From contig OZ223519.1 of assembly GCA_965140785.1 (NCBI GenBank), positions 256,001 through 320,000 on the forward strand: a DNA stretch of 64,000 bases, written 5' to 3'. Source of the stretch: an uncultured Ruficoccus sp. (GTDB taxonomy: Bacteria; Verrucomicrobiota; Verrucomicrobiia; Opitutales; Cerasicoccaceae). The notes beneath the pieces are model-generated. The model worked only from the letters and a program-made list of their open reading frames with translations, was not told the origin of the DNA and searched no databases. Positions 844 to 11,794 of the stretch are shown one piece after another. Within the stretch, counting starts at the first letter, position 1; every line of letters starts with the position of its first letter. The position numbers and the translations under genes are program-made.

Positions 844-2292
844 TCAGTCCGGAACGGGCAGACCGACGGCTTTGGCTACGCCCTCGCCGTAGGCGGGATC
901 TACATGGGTGAAGAGCTCGATCTGGCGCAGCTTGATCTCGTCGGGAACGCCCTCCATGGCGGCGGCGATGTTGCCGAAGAGACGTTCGCGTTGTCCCTCG
1001 TCGAAGAGGTTAAAGAGGGCGCGGGGCTGCGAGAAGTCGTCGTTGCCTTCGCGGTGGTTGTAGCGGTCGGCGTCGCCGTCGATGCGCAGGGGCGGCTCGG
1101 CCACGGACGGGTCTTCCTGCGGTCCGTTCATGGAGTTGGGCTCGTAGTAGGCGTCCGGGTTCTCGTTAAAATTGTCGAAGAAACGCATGAGGCCGTCCTT
1201 GTGGTAGTGGTGGACGGGGCTCTTCGGGCGATTGACGGGCAGGGCCTCGTAGTGCGTGCCCAGGCGGTAGCGGTGCGCGTCGGCGTAGGAGAAGACGCGG
1301 GCCTGGAGCATCTTGTCCGGCGAGTAGCTGATGCCGGGCACGATGTTCGAGGGGGAGAAAGCCGCCAGCTCGATGTCGGTGAAGTAGTTCTGCGGGTTGC
1401 GGTTGAGCTCCAGCTCGCCGACTTCGATCAGCGGGTAGTCCCCGTGCGGCCAGACCTTGGTCAGGTCGAAGGGATTATAGGGCGTCTTTTCGGCGTCCTT
1501 CTCGGGCATGACCTGGATGAAGAGCTTCCATTTGGGGAACTTCTTGTTTTCGATCGCGCCGAACAGGGCCTCCTGGTAGCTCTCGCGCGTCTTGCCGATG
1601 AGCTCTTCGGACTGTTCGTTGGTGAAGTGCTTGTGCCCCTGCTGGGTCTTGAAATGGAATTTGATCCAGTAGCGCTCGCCCTTGTCGTTCCAGAAGCTGT
1701 AGGTGTGCGAGCCGTAGCCGTTCATGTGCATGGGCGAGATCGGGATGCCGCGGTCGCTCATAAGGATAGTGACCTGATGCAGGCTCTCGGGCGAGAGCGA
1801 CCAGAAGTCCCACATGGCGGTGGGGGAGCGCAGGTTCGTGCGCGGGTGGCGCTTCTGAGTGTGGATAAAGTCAGGGAACTTGTACGCGTCGCGCACGAAG
1901 AAGACCGGCGTGTTGTTACCTACGAGGTCCCAGTTGCCCTCATCGGTGTAGAACTTTAACGCGAAGCCGCGCACGTCGCGCTCGGCGTCGGCGGCCCCCA
2001 TTTCCCCGGCCACGGTGGAGAAGCGGGCCAGCATCTCGGTCTTTTTACCGACCTTGGAAAAGATGTTCGCGCGGGTGTACTGGGTGATGTCGTGAGTGAC
2101 GGTCAAGGTGCCGAAGGCCCCCCATCCCTTGGCGTGGACGACACGCTCGGGGATGCGCTCGCGGTTCTGGTGGGCGAGTTTTTCCAGCAGTTGGTAGTCC
2201 TGCATGAGCAGGGGGCCGCGTGCGCCCGCGGAGAGGGAGTTCTGGTTGTCGGCGATGGGATTGCCGGCGGTGGTAGTCAGTCGTTTGGCCAT
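844..2292 (-). CDS. katA: Monofunctional heme catalase (small subunit, clade 3-like)
   Basis: [13 protein letters not shown] active-site signature, RVFSYADAH proximal Tyr ligand, VGNNTPVFF; 482 aa. Confidence 0.97.
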
Positions 2293-2412: not shown

Positions 2413-3306
2413 ATGGAAATGCATCAGCTACGTTACTTCGTGGAGCTGGCCCGGCAGGGGAATTTCTCGCGGGCGGCGTCGGCGTGCTACGTTTCCCAGC
2501 CCTCGCTGAGCCAGCAGATCATGAAACTGGAGGACGAGCTGGGGCAGCCGCTGCTCCACCGCACTCGCCGCGGGGCGCGACTGACGCACTTCGGCGAGGC
2601 CATGCTGCCGCGGGCGCGGCGCATCCTGCTGGAGGCCGAGTGCATCCGCGACGAGGCCCAGGCCCACAACGACGTAGCCTGCGGCAAGATCAACGTCGGG
2701 GCCATCCCGACGATTGCCCCGTTTCTGCTGCCGGCGCTGATGGGGCGCTGCCTGGCGAACTACCCGCGCATGCAGCTCTCGCTGGTCGAGGACACGACGA
2801 ACGACCTGGTGGCGGCCCTGCGCAACGGGCGGGTTGACTTCGCCCTGATGAGCCGACCCTATCCCTGGGAGAATGAGCTGGATTCGGTCACGCTCTGTGA
2901 GGACGAGTTGCTGGTCACCCTGGCCGAGAATCACCCCCTTAACAAGCGCCGCCGGATCAAGCTGGAGGAATTGGCCGAGTACCCGATGGTCGTGATGAAG
3001 GACATGCACTGCCTCGGGCGCCAAAGCATTTCCCTGTGCGAATCTTCGGGGCTGAGCCCGAAGGTCTCCATCGAGAGCTCGCAACTGGAAACAGTGGTGT
3101 CGCTGATCGAGGGCGGGTTGGGCTTTTCCTTTATCCCGAAAATGGCCGCCACGCAGATGACGCACCGCAGGGTCGGCTTTCACTCGGTCGCGCCCAAGCC
3201 TGTCAGCCGCGCCATCGTCCTGGCCTGGATGCGCGACACCAGCCTGACGCGTACCCAGAGTACCTTCCGTGACGAGGTGGAGGCATTCTGCCGGGAGCGG
3301 GGGTAG
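2413..3306 (+). CDS. oxyR: LysR-family hydrogen-peroxide sensor OxyR
   Basis: LysR HTH (FSRAASACYVSQPSLSQQI), IPTIAPFLLP, redox pair HCLGRQSISLC (C199/C208 equivalents); divergent from the catalase. Confidence 0.88.
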   Translation: MEMHQLRYFVELARQGNFSRAASACYVSQPSLSQQIMKLEDELGQPLLHRTRRGARLTHFGEAMLPRARRILLEAECIRDEAQAHNDVACGKINVGAIPTIAPFLLPALMGRCLANYPRMQLSLVEDTTNDLVAALRNGRVDFALMSRPYPWENELDSVTLCEDELLVTLAENHPLNKRRRIKLEELAEYPMVVMKDMHCLGRQSISLCESSGLSPKVSIESSQLETVVSLIEGGLGFSFIPKMAATQMTHRRVGFHSVAPKPVSRAIVLAWMRDTSLTRTQSTFRDEVEAFCRERG

Positions 3307-4502: not shown

Positions 4503-5600
4503 ATGGCAGAAAAAGCGGTTCTCGTTGATAAACTTCCTCCTGTAAGATCGAAAGCGGATGCCCCCGCGCCGGTAGAGGCGCAACAGGGTGAGTATAAAAC
4601 GTTACTCTCCGGTGACACGGCCCAGCCGGTCACGACCCACACGGAGGAGCCCGCGCCCGCCGAGGTGACGATCACGGCTTTTGACAAGCTGACGTATCAG
4701 TCCTTTCTGCTGGACCTGATCGTCTTCGGACTGATGGGGACGTTTTTCCTGGCCCAGGCCTTTCGCCGTCGCGCGCAGGTGCACTTCGGAGGGATGGTTG
4801 GCTTCGGGGTCTTCCTCTACGTGCTGGCGGCGAGCTTCTTCATCGCCAAGTCCGGGTACGCGGAGTTTCTCCGGGGCGAGTCTGAGTCCTATAATCTGCT
4901 CGTGCGGGGTGTGTGCTGGACGATTCTGGCGCCGTTTCTTTTCGTCATGCTCTCTCGGCTCATCCACGTGGCGAAAAAGGACCTGCCGGTGTACATCGTC
5001 ATGTTCGGTATGGCGGCGGGGCTGTTCTTTTTTATCGCGCTGTCGAACTTCGGGAGTATGCCGCAGGGCTTCCAGTTGGTGTTCGCACTTGGCTCCTTCA
5101 CCTGCTCGGCCAGCCTGATCGTGATGCTGTTCTTTACCTTGGGCTCCCTGCCCGAGGAGGACGTGCCGGAGAATCTGCGCCGCGGTGTGACCATCATCGT
5201 GTTGGTGATCGCCTGCGGCTGGTTTCTGTATCCGTTTCTCAACCTGCTCTCGCGCTTCCTGCCGAGCAGCTCGCTCTATCCATTCCTGCTTAACCTGGTG
5301 GACCTGGTAACGGTGGGGCTGATCGCGTACGGATTCTATCAGGGAGCCGGTCACCAGGCGGCCCGAATCGTGATGAAGCCCGCCTTCCGCAAGGCCCGGA
5401 TCGCCCCTTCCACCATGGAGGTGCAGGAGATTATCGAGGACGAGGAACCCGTGGCGAACGAGGACGCCGCCTACGTCAACGAGCCGAAGGAGGAGATTGC
5501 CGAGATGAAGGCCGACGGGGAATCCGAGAATCAAGCCGCCCGTCCCAAGCCGAAATTCCGCCGCCCGGCCAAGCGTATGCAAGACCCCGGCGACTCCTGA
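4503..5600 (+). CDS. Microbial-rhodopsin-like 7TM protein lacking the Schiff-base lysine
   Basis: About seven hydrophobic segments. Helix C-like RGVCWTILAP (cf. RYxDWxxTxP), helix F-like GWFLYP, helix G-like NLVDLVTV (cf. NLADxxxK, with V at the K position). Confidence 0.65.
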   Translation: MAEKAVLVDKLPPVRSKADAPAPVEAQQGEYKTLLSGDTAQPVTTHTEEPAPAEVTITAFDKLTYQSFLLDLIVFGLMGTFFLAQAFRRRAQVHFGGMVGFGVFLYVLAASFFIAKSGYAEFLRGESESYNLLVRGVCWTILAPFLFVMLSRLIHVAKKDLPVYIVMFGMAAGLFFFIALSNFGSMPQGFQLVFALGSFTCSASLIVMLFFTLGSLPEEDVPENLRRGVTIIVLVIACGWFLYPFLNLLSRFLPSSSLYPFLLNLVDLVTVGLIAYGFYQGAGHQAARIVMKPAFRKARIAPSTMEVQEIIEDEEPVANEDAAYVNEPKEEIAEMKADGESENQAARPKPKFRRPAKRMQDPGDS

Positions 5601-5693
5601 CGCCCGGCCCGCGAACCGGACTGCCGGGTTGCAATCTCTCTCACCTTGTCTAAAGGAGTAGGGTTTATTCTCACCCAACTTCTCTCAATCCCT

Positions 5694-6608
5694 GTGTCTT
5701 CCAAATCGTCCTCTCCTCAACCCTCCCTTATCATTTTTGGCTGTGGCTATGTCGGCAGCGAAGTCGCTCGGCAGGCCCTGCAAAAGGGCTGGCAGGTCCG
5801 CGCCCTGACCCGTAACGCGGAGAAGGCCGAGGCCCTGCGCGAACTGGGGTTGACCCAGGTCGAAGTGGCCGATCTCGACAGCCGCGAGTGGCACGACAAG
5901 TTCGAGCCCGAGCAGGACTTTGTCCTGAACTGCGTGAGCTCCGCCGGGGGCGGGCTCGACGGCTATCGCAAGTCCTACATCGAGGGGCAGCGCTCGATCC
6001 TGGAGTGGGCAGCCGGCTGGCATATCGGCACCTACGTCTATACCGGTGCGACCAGTGTGTACCCGCAGGCCGACGGCGAGTGGGTGGACGAAACCGCCTC
6101 CAGTGAAAACGCCTCTGATCACGGCAGCCTGCTGCTGGAGTCCGAAGAGCTGCTCAAGGGCGCGCGGGGGCTGAGCCGGTGGTTTGTGCTGCGTCTGGCC
6201 GGGATTTACGGGCCAGGTCGGCACTACTTTGTGGACATGCTGCGGGCGGGCAAAACAGAGTTCCCGGGCTCGGGCGAAACCTGGCTCAACCTCATCCACC
6301 GCGACGACATTGCGCGGGCGGTTTTCGCCGCCTTCGAGGCACCGGCCGAGATCGCCAACCGCATTTACAATGTGGCCGATGGCCACCCGGCCCCGCGTGG
6401 CGAGATCATCGGCTGGCTGGCGCAGCAGTGCGGGCAGCCCGCCCCGACCTTCGAGCCCGCGCAGTCGCGCGCACGTGACAGCGGGCGGCGCTCGGCGGGC
6501 GGGCAACTGCCAAACCGCCGCATCGACGCCGGACTGATTCGGAAGGAGCTTGGGTGGGAGCCGGCTTATGTTACATTTCGTGACGGCTTCACCGAAGTGT
6601 TACAGTAA
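5694..6608 (+). CDS. NAD-dependent epimerase/dehydratase (atypical SDR)
   Basis: IFGCGYVG Rossmann motif, LRLAGIYGPGR, NLIHRDD. Start uncertain (GTG 5694 or TTG 5646). Confidence 0.85.
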   Translation: MSSKSSSPQPSLIIFGCGYVGSEVARQALQKGWQVRALTRNAEKAEALRELGLTQVEVADLDSREWHDKFEPEQDFVLNCVSSAGGGLDGYRKSYIEGQRSILEWAAGWHIGTYVYTGATSVYPQADGEWVDETASSENASDHGSLLLESEELLKGARGLSRWFVLRLAGIYGPGRHYFVDMLRAGKTEFPGSGETWLNLIHRDDIARAVFAAFEAPAEIANRIYNVADGHPAPRGEIIGWLAQQCGQPAPTFEPAQSRARDSGRRSAGGQLPNRRIDAGLIRKELGWEPAYVTFRDGFTEVLQ

Positions 6609-6650
6609 AGGCTTTGCCAGCCGGGGGGCGGTTGTGGCTTTTCTGAAAGC

Positions 6651-9968: not shown

Positions 9969-10054
9969 GGTCGGGCGGGTCGGTGGGAGATTTTCAGAAA
10001 GCACGGAATCGCCGTCATTCCGAGTCAAATTGCGGTTCGCGTGGATTTTTTCAT

Positions 10055-10100
10055 TTGACAGAGGGGGCGAAGTGGGATGATTTGGGTCGAAGTGGAACGA
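10055..10100 (+). promoter_or_regulatory. dcw promoter -35 (TTGACA) followed by MraZ binding repeats
   Basis: Four 10-bp-period units GAGGGGGCGA/AGTGGGATGA/TTTGGGTCGA/AGTGGAACGA with (G)TGG cores directly after TTGACA, upstream of mraZ. Confidence 0.75.
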
Positions 10101-10120
10101 ATCTCCTCCATCTTCTCTCC

Positions 10121-10576
10121 ATGATTTCCTTTGAACAGGGCCTTTATGCTGGAGAACACCGGCATAATCTGGACGCCAAAAAGCGTCTGACGGTCCCGTC
10201 GAAATGGCGTTTCGACGGGGACGAGAATGCTCTGTACCTCGCCTTTGCCGACCCCAGCGGCTGCGTGACCGTTTATCCGCCCAAGATGGTGGAGCAGCTC
10301 AAGGCCCGCTTGTCCTCAATCAGCCTGGGTGACAAGAAAGGCCAGCGCGCGATCATGCGGCTGCTCGGGCAGTCGGATCAGTTCACTTTTGACAAGAACG
10401 GACGCATCAACCTCAACGACCGCCTCTACCGGCACGCCGGGATCGAGAAGGAGGTCGTGCTGGTGGGCACCGTGAACAAATTCCACCTCTGGGAGCCGGA
10501 CCGCTACGAGGCCTACATCGAGGCCGACGAAGACGACGGCGATCTCAGCGATGTCCTCACCGAACTCGGACTCTAA
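10121..10576 (+). CDS. mraZ: Transcriptional regulator MraZ
   Basis: LDAKKRLTVPSKWR and FDKNGRINL motifs; first gene of the dcw cluster. Confidence 0.93.
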   Translation: MISFEQGLYAGEHRHNLDAKKRLTVPSKWRFDGDENALYLAFADPSGCVTVYPPKMVEQLKARLSSISLGDKKGQRAIMRLLGQSDQFTFDKNGRINLNDRLYRHAGIEKEVVLVGTVNKFHLWEPDRYEAYIEADEDDGDLSDVLTELGL

Positions 10577-10614
10577 CTTTACAACGTTTCTTCTTTTTTA
10601 ACCGAACACCAACC

Positions 10615-10821
10615 ATGAGAATCAGCCAGGAACTCTATAACGCCGGTATCCTGGGGCGCCAGGAAACCCGTAAACCGACCACCTTCGAGGTGGTTGCCCG
10701 TCACGCCCCGCGCTTTGGCGAGGGCGGTCCTCTGTTCGAGGCCTTCCAACGCCGCGAGCAGTCCACCAAAGTCAACGCCCGCGGATGGAGAGCCCTCTCC
10801 CATGTGCTTCGCCTTCGCTAG
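10615..10821 (+). other. Small ORF (68 aa) and/or structured RNA element between mraZ and rsmH
   Basis: ATG-started ORF in the 273-bp spacer, overlapping several GC-rich hairpins. Confidence 0.35.
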
Positions 10822-10849
10822 GTCGGCATGGGACGCCCTCGTTTATAAG

Positions 10850-11794
10850 ATGGCCGGTCACCTGCCCGTGATGCTGCGAGAGGTGCTCGCTCTCCTCGCG
10901 CCGCAGCGGGGCGGGCATTACCTGGACGGCACTTTCGGCGGCGGCGGCCACAGCCGCGCTATCCTGGAGGCCAGTCCGGAGGTTCGGCTGACCGCGTTGG
11001 ACCGCGACCCGGAGGCCGCCCTGCGGGCCCAGCGATTCCGCGAGGAGTTCGGCCACCGTTTCACTTTTCACCACCTGGAGTTTTCTCAACTACAAACACT
11101 GACTGATCAAGATTACGCCGGGGCTCTTTTCGACCTCGGCGTATCCTCTTTCCAACTCGACGAGGCCGAACGCGGCTTCTCCTTCGGCAAACCCGCCCCC
11201 ACCGACATGCGTATGGACCCCGACTCCGGCCAGAGTGCCGCCGACTTTCTCGAGACCGCTCCCGAGCGCGATCTCGTGCATGCGGTGCGCGACCTGGGCG
11301 AGGAGCAGTCCTGGCGCCGGGTGTGCCGGGCGATCGTCGATGCCCGTGGCACGGGTGCGCTCGCCCGGACCGACTCGCTGGCCGAGCTGGTGGCCGCGGC
11401 CATCCCGAAGCGCGGCGGCAAGCCCGCCCGTATCCATCCGGCGACCCGGACCTTTCAGGGCATCCGCATGGCGGTCAACGACGAGTTGGGCGTGCTGGAG
11501 CGCATGCTCCCCGCCGCCTTCGCGCGGCTGGCCGTGGGCGGCGTCCTGGCCGTGATCACTTTCCACTCACTGGAAGACCGTCCGGTGAAACGCTTTTTCA
11601 ACCGCCTGGCGGGCCGTCCCGAGCACGCCGGCGACTCCCGTCCCCAGGACGAGCGGGTCAAGCTGGCCGAGCTGCTGACACGCCGCCCGCTGAGCCCGGA
11701 CGAGGACGAACTGACCGCCAACCCCCGGAGCCGTTCGGCCAAGCTGCGCGCCGTGCGCAAGCTTGAGAGCGCTCCCGAACTTCAACCTGCCTGA
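10850..11794 (+). CDS. rsmH: 16S rRNA m4C1402 methyltransferase
   Basis: HLPVM, DGTFGGGGHS, DLGVSSFQLD, HPATRTFQ, FHSLEDR, NPRSRSAKLR. Confidence 0.96.
   Translation: MAGHLPVMLREVLALLAPQRGGHYLDGTFGGGGHSRAILEASPEVRLTALDRDPEAALRAQRFREEFGHRFTFHHLEFSQLQTLTDQDYAGALFDLGVSSFQLDEAERGFSFGKPAPTDMRMDPDSGQSAADFLETAPERDLVHAVRDLGEEQSWRRVCRAIVDARGTGALARTDSLAELVAAAIPKRGGKPARIHPATRTFQGIRMAVNDELGVLERMLPAAFARLAVGGVLAVITFHSLEDRPVKRFFNRLAGRPEHAGDSRPQDERVKLAELLTRRPLSPDEDELTANPRSRSAKLRAVRKLESAPELQPA

Follow-up and report, generated by a model that had tools for sequence, protein, structure and literature searches.

We describe a gene at positions 4503-5600 (+) of a 64,000-nucleotide stretch of an uncultured Ruficoccus sp. 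genome (the window; assembly GCA_965140785.1, contig OZ223519.1, forward-strand positions 256,001 to 320,000) that encodes a divergent homologue of the type-1 (microbial) rhodopsins in which the lysine that would carry retinal is replaced by valine. Its open reading frame (ORF) starts with ATG, runs for 365 codons and is free of internal stops. The encoded protein, P0001, has lost the pigment-attachment and proton-transfer residues of the rhodopsin pumps and keeps the residues that surround the Schiff base in them, and we consider that it probably descends from a bacterial proton-pumping rhodopsin and works without retinal or light. A preliminary description, made from the sequence of the window, had already proposed a rhodopsin-like protein lacking the retinal-binding lysine, and its claims are taken up below where the results bear on them.

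Rhodopsin homology, architecture and residue positions

The standard family models do not recognize P0001. The Pfam Bac_rhodopsin model (PF01036) scores it at 14.6 bits (E 0.024), under the gathering threshold of 24.6 bits; the best score among the relatives scanned is 24.3 bits (P0017), several of these have no match, and an NCBIfam scan of P0001 gave none either. Given that both sets of models miss the family, rhodopsin surveys that depend on them overlook derivatives of this kind. The best match of P0001 in a phmmer search of the PDB was MAR rhodopsin (5JSI) at E 0.11. Sub-threshold Pfam matches to MARVEL and MscS_TM (P0001) and to 7TMR-DISM_7TM (P0010) were treated as noise, and rows for cyclin-A2 in the PDB results had E values of about 1 and were confined to the disordered C-terminal tail.

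The relationship emerges from the wider searches. Against 1.84 billion representative sequences, phmmer returned 19 matches to P0001, including two lysine-bearing rhodopsins, P0019 (E 1.8e-6) and P0022 (E 4.8e-5), which themselves score 134 and 139 bits with Bac_rhodopsin; in BLASTP, P0001 aligns with P0019 through all seven helices (pairwise E 5e-10). A profile built from 14 family members and holding no canonical rhodopsin (A3) found four matches in the PDB, all of them rhodopsins, with the Exiguobacterium sibiricum rhodopsin (ESR, 4HYJ) first at E 2.4e-7, followed by actinorhodopsin, PsFAR and MAR rhodopsin. Structure searches were run with an AlphaFold2 (AF2) model of P0001 and rest on a prediction from a shallow alignment of 10 family sequences. 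In Foldseek all matches listed were microbial rhodopsins, 30 of them at E <= 0.001 and with TM-scores by target of up to 0.84. VIA-align, run over 48,161 chains, placed microbial rhodopsins in its top 36 rows (Z 24.3-15.6; ESR at Z 23.3, root-mean-square deviation 2.3 over 215 residues), with TMEM87A as the next fold at Z 13.6 and GPCRs (G protein-coupled receptors) at 13 or less. Bac_rhodopsin clusters also appeared in 29 of 30 feature matches in the ESM Atlas.

Profile searches, the pairwise alignment and the two structure searches therefore agree on the rhodopsin-like identity first proposed from the sequence, and together they show P0001 to be a divergent type-1 rhodopsin homologue with a predicted type-1 fold. 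The opsin landmarks are more than chance resemblance, given that the motifs stay invariant down to ~22% identity and that independent sequence and fold searches return rhodopsins. Rhodopsin similarity and seven helices are both present, and no alignment places a lysine at the Schiff-base position. The features of the gene are as follows.

4503..5600 (+): lysine-less opsin-related gene (P0001, 365 aa), from the ORF and its translation, with rhodopsin homology by profile and fold
4503..4544 (+): N-terminal peptide MAEKAVLVDKLPPV (residues 1-14), conserved in the close and sister clades and predicted to lie in the periplasm, the side assigned by loop charge
4677..5348 (+): seven-helix rhodopsin-fold core, residues 59-282, from the AF2 helices, Foldseek and VIA-align
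4905..4934 (+): helix C motif R135-G-V-C138-W139-T-I-L142-A-P144, from alignment to lysine-bearing rhodopsins
5220..5243 (+): helix F motif W240-F-L-Y243-P244-F-L-N247, from the alignment of 19 family rows
5292..5315 (+): helix G motif N264-L-V-D267-L-V-T-V271, from the DNA and the MAFFT alignment
5547..5585 (+): basic C-terminal peptide K349-P-K-F-R-R-P-A-K-R-M-Q-D361 in the last stretch of the cytoplasmic tail, which is disordered and acidic, from family conservation

The AF2 helices span residues 59-88, 95-123, 130-154, 158-181, 188-214, 223-249 and 258-282. The predicted local distance difference test score (pLDDT) is mostly 81-95 in the core, lower in loop blocks and <50 for residues 1-52 and 286-365, so that the model reproduces the earlier outline of about seven transmembrane (TM) segments between an N-tail of ~58 residues and a C-tail of ~80 residues, with both tails disordered. 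Lysine and arginine number ~12 in the cytoplasmic loops and the start of the C-tail and ~3 in the periplasmic loops when counted with the AF2 helix limits. Because of this excess we infer that the type-1 orientation is kept, with the N-terminus and its peptide outside in the periplasm and the C-terminus and its peptide in the cytoplasm. Both terminal peptides are conserved. The N-terminal one, MAEKAVLVDKLPPV, is conserved from Met1 in the close clade and in a kinase-linked sister clade described below; in the C-terminal one, P350 and R353 are invariant and K349, F352, P355 and K357 nearly so. Within its own genome the opsin-like gene alone carries the N-terminal motif; one unrelated match to KPxFR(R/K)P and one to LLEKLPP elsewhere in that genome were judged to be chance.

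The MAFFT alignment used to compare residues, in the numbering and motifs of bacteriorhodopsin (BR), combined 19 rows of the close family with 15 canonical rhodopsins from this order and 11 rows of the distant clade. The retained positions are these.

R135, equivalent to BR R82: 19/19 close-family rows
W139, equivalent to BR W86: 19/19 close-family rows
Y243, equivalent to BR Y185: 19/19 close-family rows
N264, no BR equivalent given: 19/19 close-family rows
D267, equivalent to BR D212: 19/19 close-family rows
W240, equivalent to BR W182: 18/19 close-family rows
P144, equivalent to BR P91: 18/19 close-family rows
P244, equivalent to BR P186: 17/19 close-family rows

The landmarks named in the preliminary description (R135/W139/P144, W240/Y243/P244 and N264/D267) are thus invariant or near-invariant columns at exactly those residues; elsewhere in helix F, N247 of P0001 replaces BR W189. 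The claim that valine occupies the K216 position was borne out in the DNA, where codon 5313-5315 is GTG (Val271) and codon 5301-5303 is GAC (Asp267). MAFFT sets D267 on the D and V271 on the K of DxxxK without gaps, in BLASTP a gap of one or three residues falls at the K, and in neither alignment does helix G of P0001 (residues 258-282) contain a lysine. At position 271 the family has L in six rows, V in five, M and I in three each and F in two, against K in all 15 canonical rows. Only one lysine, K116 where helix B ends, lies near a helix; some rhodopsins with D/T/K at the 85/89/96 positions (DTK rhodopsins) have a lysine there too. Because helix G is without lysine, these alignments show that no retinal Schiff base can form.

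The pump positions are lost as well. Position 138 (BR D85) varies among C, S, T, A, G, V, I and M over the 19 family rows and is Asp or Glu in none of them, and alignment to lysine-bearing rhodopsins upholds the C/L/M reading of P0001 at 85/89/96, namely C138, L142 (replacing T89) and M149 (replacing D96). Proton pumping in the known way is likewise shown by the alignment to be impossible, because the acceptor and donor positions are neutral (C138, M149). The alignments therefore agree with the proposal that P0001 cannot bind retinal covalently while keeping the R/W/P...W/Y/P...D landmarks. We make no claim that F175 or F176 fills the ionone-ring site, given that the helix-D alignments of HMMER and MAFFT differ by two residues and are ambiguous there.

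Family, descent and pigment context

The family is small. Among 5.8 billion clusters we found 10 proteins including P0001, every one unnamed or 'hypothetical'; the closest named homologue comes from Ruficoccus amylovorans (76% identity), the others from Puniceicoccales and Verrucomicrobiota metagenome-assembled genomes, and one cluster is labelled Bacteroidales on the basis of a 1.7-kb contig. A profile match occurs in 22 of 301 genomes of the order, a tally that includes canonical rhodopsins (G201, G281 and a second match in G134) and two weak matches (G144, G192) that were set aside. The close clade is present in 12 of the 301 genomes and distant forms in 6. Close-clade members occur in all five genomes of the window's genus (its own counted), in five of six of a second genus and in one genome each of two further genera, and, among 401 genomes sampled from the whole phylum, four have close-clade matches (E <= 1e-30), all of them in the window's family. 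Both genome sets are samples, and absences here and below apply to the genomes searched; among them the family was detected in one Opitutia-class lineage only.

In a maximum-likelihood tree of 34 rows, which is unrooted and from which the 11 distant-clade rows were left out, the 19 lysine-less rows lie on one side of a branch with 100/100 support, and this split implies that the lysine was lost once. The lysine-less clade joins the tree at the DTK grade, its long stem meeting the canonical side among DTK-motif rhodopsins, which points to descent from DTK proton pumps. P0019, P0022 and the rhodopsins of G134, G201 and G281 all read D/T/K at 85/89/96. Against four same-genus orthologues, the ratio of nonsynonymous to synonymous substitution rates (dN/dS) comes to 0.14-0.31 over the full gene and 0.07-0.22 within the TM core, which shows purifying selection at the level of the coding sequence, and the ORF is intact in all 12 close-clade genomes, which represent at least four genera.

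The host genome is 90.85% complete and the other close-clade genomes 93-99%. In the host genome, at that completeness, we found no second PF01036 match, no blh and no lycopene cyclase; a heliorhodopsin search of it gave no match either, but is uninformative, given that its search control matched nowhere. The genome holds three SQS_PSY (phytoene/squalene synthase) matches on contigs C34 and C40 and two CrtI-family genes on other contigs, none of the matches listed being on the window's contig (C48). The absence of blh and crt genes from the window, noted in the preliminary description, thus extends to blh in the whole genome, and the crt-type matches lie off the contig. CrtI-family genes without lycopene cyclase or blh suggest that the host makes acyclic or C30 carotenoids. 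The two CrtI-family desaturase genes stand 1.7 kb apart (C26:192029-196653), and one of the matches holds a TAA stop. Canonical rhodopsins occur in 35 of the 301 genomes of the order and in one of the 12 close-clade genomes, G134. In that genome a DTK (ESR-like) rhodopsin gene is followed by lycopene cyclase and blh (L051 6943-9764), and the lysine-less gene is on another contig. Given that the hosts mostly lack a true rhodopsin or a retinal pathway, any phenotype of the gene must, on this genomic evidence, be light-independent.

More distant matches (P0020, P0021, P0025 and four genome loci) form a sister clade, whose genes in the four loci are as follows.

L043 6112-7020 (-): sister-clade gene
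L047 8761-9717 (+): sister-clade gene
L048 8823-9779 (+): sister-clade gene
L049 5699-6652 (-): sister-clade gene

Sister and close clades are homologous over 285 columns (hhalign probability 99.8%, E 5.5e-29) and have in common the N-terminal peptide M-[AS]-E-K-x-T-L-L-x-x-[IL]-P-P and a long disordered tail, which in the sister clade ends in a basic APAKPKKRF related to the close-clade C-terminal motif. A fold search with a sister-clade AF2 model, itself built from a shallow alignment of 8 sequences, gave rhodopsins in its top 35 rows (Z 22.6-15.9), even though this clade has lost the equivalents of R82, D212, W182 and Y185. In all four loci the next gene, on the same strand, encodes a Ser/Thr kinase (Pkinase) of 300-318 aa, and these kinases are 69-81% identical to one another.

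Comparison with described opsins

Lysine-less type-1 opsins are an established kind, represented by the haloarchaeal and fungal opsin-related proteins (ORPs), of which we take the fungal ones to be HSP30/YRO2-type, by Rh-noK and by the FArhodopsins. They have been reported several times, and a function has been established for none. Our literature search, which left most subscription journals outside its coverage, found no prior description of the present family. The lysine-less family described here differs from those known in its DTK-pump ancestry, the lack of a paralogous pump and of a flotillin or transducer neighbour, the retention of the counter-ion network, the long tails with conserved terminal peptides and the kinase-linked sister clade.

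ESR is the described pump with a DTK motif (PMC8927995; PMC10154332). P0001 shares with the DTK rhodopsins the equivalents of R82, W86, P91, W182, Y185, P186, D212 and 'NxxD', together with the FxxLxxLP(E/D) motif of the E-F loop. Unlike them, it has no Schiff-base lysine (V271) and no acceptor aspartate (C138), reads Leu for Thr89 and Met for the donor lysine, carries a 58-aa N-tail and an 83-aa C-tail that each hold a conserved terminal peptide, has no blh or carotenoid cyclase gene beside it and falls below the Bac_rhodopsin threshold.

Rh-noK, a lysine-less relative of xanthorhodopsin from marine betaproteobacteria (Yamauchi et al. 2019, cited in PMC10308929 and 10.1101/2025.04.29.651185), resembles P0001, as far as those citing texts describe it, as a bacterial pump-derived opsin that keeps the overall architecture without the helix-G lysine. 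P0001 differs in its phylum, in its terminal extensions and in its hosts, in 11 of 12 of which no canonical rhodopsin was found. Its acceptor and donor residues are gone too, and because of this second loss a single lysine would be unlikely to restore pumping in P0001.

The FArhodopsins (PMC10308929; PsFAR, 9R21/9R22) are described as a retinal-free rhodopsin fold with Met at the donor position, both of which P0001 shares. PsFAR is matched by the P0001-family profile (9r22, E 0.002) and by fold (9r21, TM-score by target 0.78). The flotillin gene that marks them is not adjacent to the P0001 gene, whose neighbours encode a nucleotidyltransferase, a short-chain dehydrogenase/reductase (SDR) and a porin, and no flotillin was found among the conserved neighbours in the relatives' loci. 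Marine FArhodopsins are reported to keep the lysine, their pocket being lost to His and Glu side chains, whereas P0001 loses the lysine; by our own count of the offset from the donor, the position of their His84 is a small Ala143 in P0001. They are also described as co-occurring with a proteorhodopsin paralogue, unlike P0001, and lysine-less FArhodopsins are known from freshwater (PMC10308929; 10.1101/2025.04.29.651185).

The haloarchaeal and fungal ORPs (Becker et al. 2016, PMC4915679) are likewise type-1 opsin homologues, with Arg, Leu or another hydrophobic residue for the lysine, and are reported there as expressed, without canonical retinal binding and proposed as sensors of something other than light. 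The haloarchaeal ones are described as descending from sensory rhodopsins, with HAMP/MCP transducers adjacent in group A; P0001, in contrast, appears to have DTK-pump ancestry, and no transducer gene was found among its neighbours in the window or in the relatives' loci. In that survey, the 45 ORPs from outside the haloarchaea comprise two fungal groups (31 and 8) and six unnamed singletons, and neither 'Verrucomicrobia' nor 'Opitut' occurs in the main text. The usefulness of the present family lies in its cultured hosts, in its occurrence on its own, for the most part in hosts that lack a true rhodopsin or a retinal pathway, in the retention of the counter-ion network after loss of the lysine and pump residues, in terminal peptides that are testable handles for interactions, and in a sister clade with a Ser/Thr kinase gene next to it in every locus.

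Candidate functions and gene neighbourhood

The reading that we prefer, with confidence somewhat short of even, is that the bundle of seven helices has taken on a new role, as a membrane scaffold or a sensor working through its tails, given that the terminal peptides are common to both clades and that the pocket residues are dispensable in the sister clade. The buried R135-D267-Y243-W139 cluster, formerly the counter-ion network of the Schiff base, would now be a structural core or a site for a small polar ligand or ion. Communication would run through the two terminal peptides, periplasmic MAEKAVLVDKLPPV and basic cytoplasmic KPxFRRPAKRMKD, the latter docking or recruiting a soluble partner at the end of its disordered tail. 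In the sister clade that partner would most plausibly be the adjacent Ser/Thr kinase; for P0001 the candidate would be the SDR with which its gene is probably co-transcribed.

Several observations weigh against this scaffold or sensor. AF2 leaves the tails undocked at pLDDT <50, and the models of both clades come from shallow alignments, of 10 and 8 sequences. The pocket aromatics are strictly kept in the close clade, so that a hydrophobic ligand could still be bound. The host genome has no orthologue of the sister-clade kinase, the best match being 27% identical. Of the 301 genomes of the order, 167 have an orthologue of the SDR, mostly in one copy, which greatly exceeds the number with the opsin-like gene, and in the metagenomic locus L080, which holds a divergent member, the SDR is absent downstream of the opsin-like gene. 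The adjacency of the two genes may thus be an inherited insertion site and not a functional pairing, given that the SDR is widespread without the opsin-like gene and directly follows an acyltransferase gene where the opsin-like gene is absent.

A bolder form of the same idea would join the opsin-like gene and the sister clade in an undescribed bacterial superfamily of retinal-free rhodopsin-fold receptors, in which a pump had turned into a chemical or physical sensor signalling through its N- and C-terminal peptides to a Ser/Thr kinase or SDR. Such receptors would be a bacterial parallel to GPCR-style 7TM signalling, and we hold their existence to be rather improbable.

The neighbourhood bears on these readings and on the alternatives to them. 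Within about 4 kb of the opsin-like gene lie genes for a catalase, a LysR regulator, a nucleotidyltransferase, the SDR, a porin and an NAD kinase. Two features follow it directly.

5646..6608 (+): extended-SDR gene (epimerase/dehydratase family), from Pfam Epimerase; start uncertain (TTG 5646 or GTG 5694)
6618..6634 (+): terminator-like hairpin 3' of the SDR gene, from a consensus scan only, which is not evidence of function

The SDR scores 64 bits with Pfam Epimerase and receives no specific NCBIfam assignment; its best PDB relatives are uncharacterised structural-genomics entries. It stands directly 3' of the opsin-like gene on the same strand in all 11 genome loci of relatives and in 12 of 13 loci overall, mostly across 5-93 bp (two gaps are larger, about 230 and 460 bp). 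In the window, the consensus scan places no terminator-like site between the two genes and one after the SDR. The two genes are probably co-transcribed, then, and the hairpin at 6618-6634 could possibly end a two-gene transcription unit. The synteny supports co-expression and is weak evidence for a functional pairing.

Other neighbours suggest an older arrangement. In 7 of 13 loci (L036, L037, L039, L040, L041, L042 and L080) the gene directly upstream of the opsin-like one is an acyltransferase orthologue, and in the second genus ybaB and recR lie downstream of the SDR. In G215, which has no opsin-like gene, the ORF of the PlsC-like acyltransferase abuts and overlaps that of the SDR, and in six loci from relatives that lack the opsin-like gene other genes lie upstream of the SDR. 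Genes resembling hemF or hemE occur near the SDR in L052, L055, L056 and L070, the first three named by N-terminal sequence only, and L080 runs from hemE and hemF through the acyltransferase and the opsin-like gene to a tRNA synthetase gene. Several genomes place the SDR in a setting of the type hemE/hemF-acyltransferase-SDR-ybaB-recR. The simplest reading of this gene order would be that an older acyltransferase-SDR-ybaB-recR backbone received the opsin-like gene as an insertion and kept it. The preliminary description had left open whether the adjacent SDR and porin genes were linked to the opsin-like gene: for the SDR the linkage holds as synteny (12 of 13 loci) and looks like inherited backbone, and for the porin, as for the nucleotidyltransferase, conservation is confined to the genus. 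In L070 (520-7531, G209) SDR, CBS-domain and recR genes are followed on one strand by a rhodopsin with a DTE motif, a polyprenyl synthase and a fused CrtI-CrtB, which puts a genuine rhodopsin-carotenoid cluster 2 kb from this SDR backbone. We considered and rejected a pairing of the SDR with canonical rhodopsins (G209 and G062, 2-3 kb apart) as backbone synteny, with the CBS-domain gene and recR in between, as seen in G209.

The backbone also invites a light-independent role in lipid handling, with P0001 as a phospholipid scramblase or similar protein co-expressed with the PlsC-like acyltransferase and the SDR. In six loci the opsin-like gene stands between these two enzymes and in L080 directly after the acyltransferase; their overlapping ORFs in G215 make it look inserted into a pair, and no terminator-like site precedes the SDR. 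Scrambling that needs neither retinal nor light is reported for a proteorhodopsin in a paper (PMC10730872) that cites the same activity for bacteriorhodopsin and bovine opsin. However, the window's genus has lost the acyltransferase neighbour, with no orthologue in the host genome at E < 1e-8, the lipid-type roles of the acyltransferase and the SDR are putative, the best PDB relatives of the SDR being uncharacterised, and scrambling would leave the conserved terminal peptides and the kinase link of the sister clade unexplained. We consider a lipid role unlikely, though not strikingly so.

Alternatively, the pocket formed by W139, W240, Y243, P244 and D267 could bind a carotenoid, retinoid or similar molecule non-covalently and perhaps exchange it with the SDR. 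Retinol and retinal dehydrogenases are SDRs, and the two CrtI-family and the SQS_PSY genes indicate that the host probably makes carotenoids. The pocket landmarks are invariant or nearly so over 19 rows that diverge to ~22% identity, in contrast to the sister clade, which lost them; haloarchaeal ORPs are also reported to lack several pocket aromatics (PMC4915679), and the PsFAR pocket is described as filled by other side chains (10.1101/2025.04.29.651185). Yet the lack of blh and lycopene cyclase leaves no known retinal route in the host genome, and the residues kept belong equally to the D212-Y185-W86-R82 hydrogen-bond network, so that their role may be purely structural. Invariant F175 may fill the ionone-ring site within the ambiguously aligned helix D, and the SDR is widespread, single-copy and independent of the opsin-like protein. 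We regard ligand binding of this kind as decidedly improbable.

It is extremely unlikely that P0001 is a regulatory subunit that enters the oligomers of a functional rhodopsin pump and tunes it, the role suggested for Rh-noK and for the flotillin-associated rhodopsins, both reported alongside paralogous pumps. G134 does hold the opsin-like gene together with a DTK rhodopsin, blh and a lycopene cyclase gene, but the two opsin genes are on different contigs, and no canonical rhodopsin was found in the host genome or, among the 11 other genomes of the close clade, in 10, which disfavours the partnership suggested in the preliminary description. We give almost no credence to a decaying relic of a pump gene: although every pigment-attachment and proton-transfer residue is lost and the stem branch to the canonical rhodopsins is long, a relic is contradicted by the selection data, by the intact ORFs in every close-clade genome and by invariant residues and terminal motifs that persist at identities of about 22-35%. 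What credence is left over goes to some other role.

Some minor observations concern the surroundings of these genes. The same order also contains, in L061 (1453-2364, G105), a rhodopsin that reads N/D/Q at 85/89/96, the sodium-pump motif. In the window, a gene at 844-2292 (-), which we take to be a catalase from its sequence and a tblastn label, and a LysR-family regulator at 2413-3306 (+) are divergent in an OxyR-like layout and are also adjacent in L033. The ORFs at 9983-11794 (+) are presumably mraZ-like and rsmH-like, judging from their translations, and would mark the start of a dcw cluster; their synteny holds within the genus.

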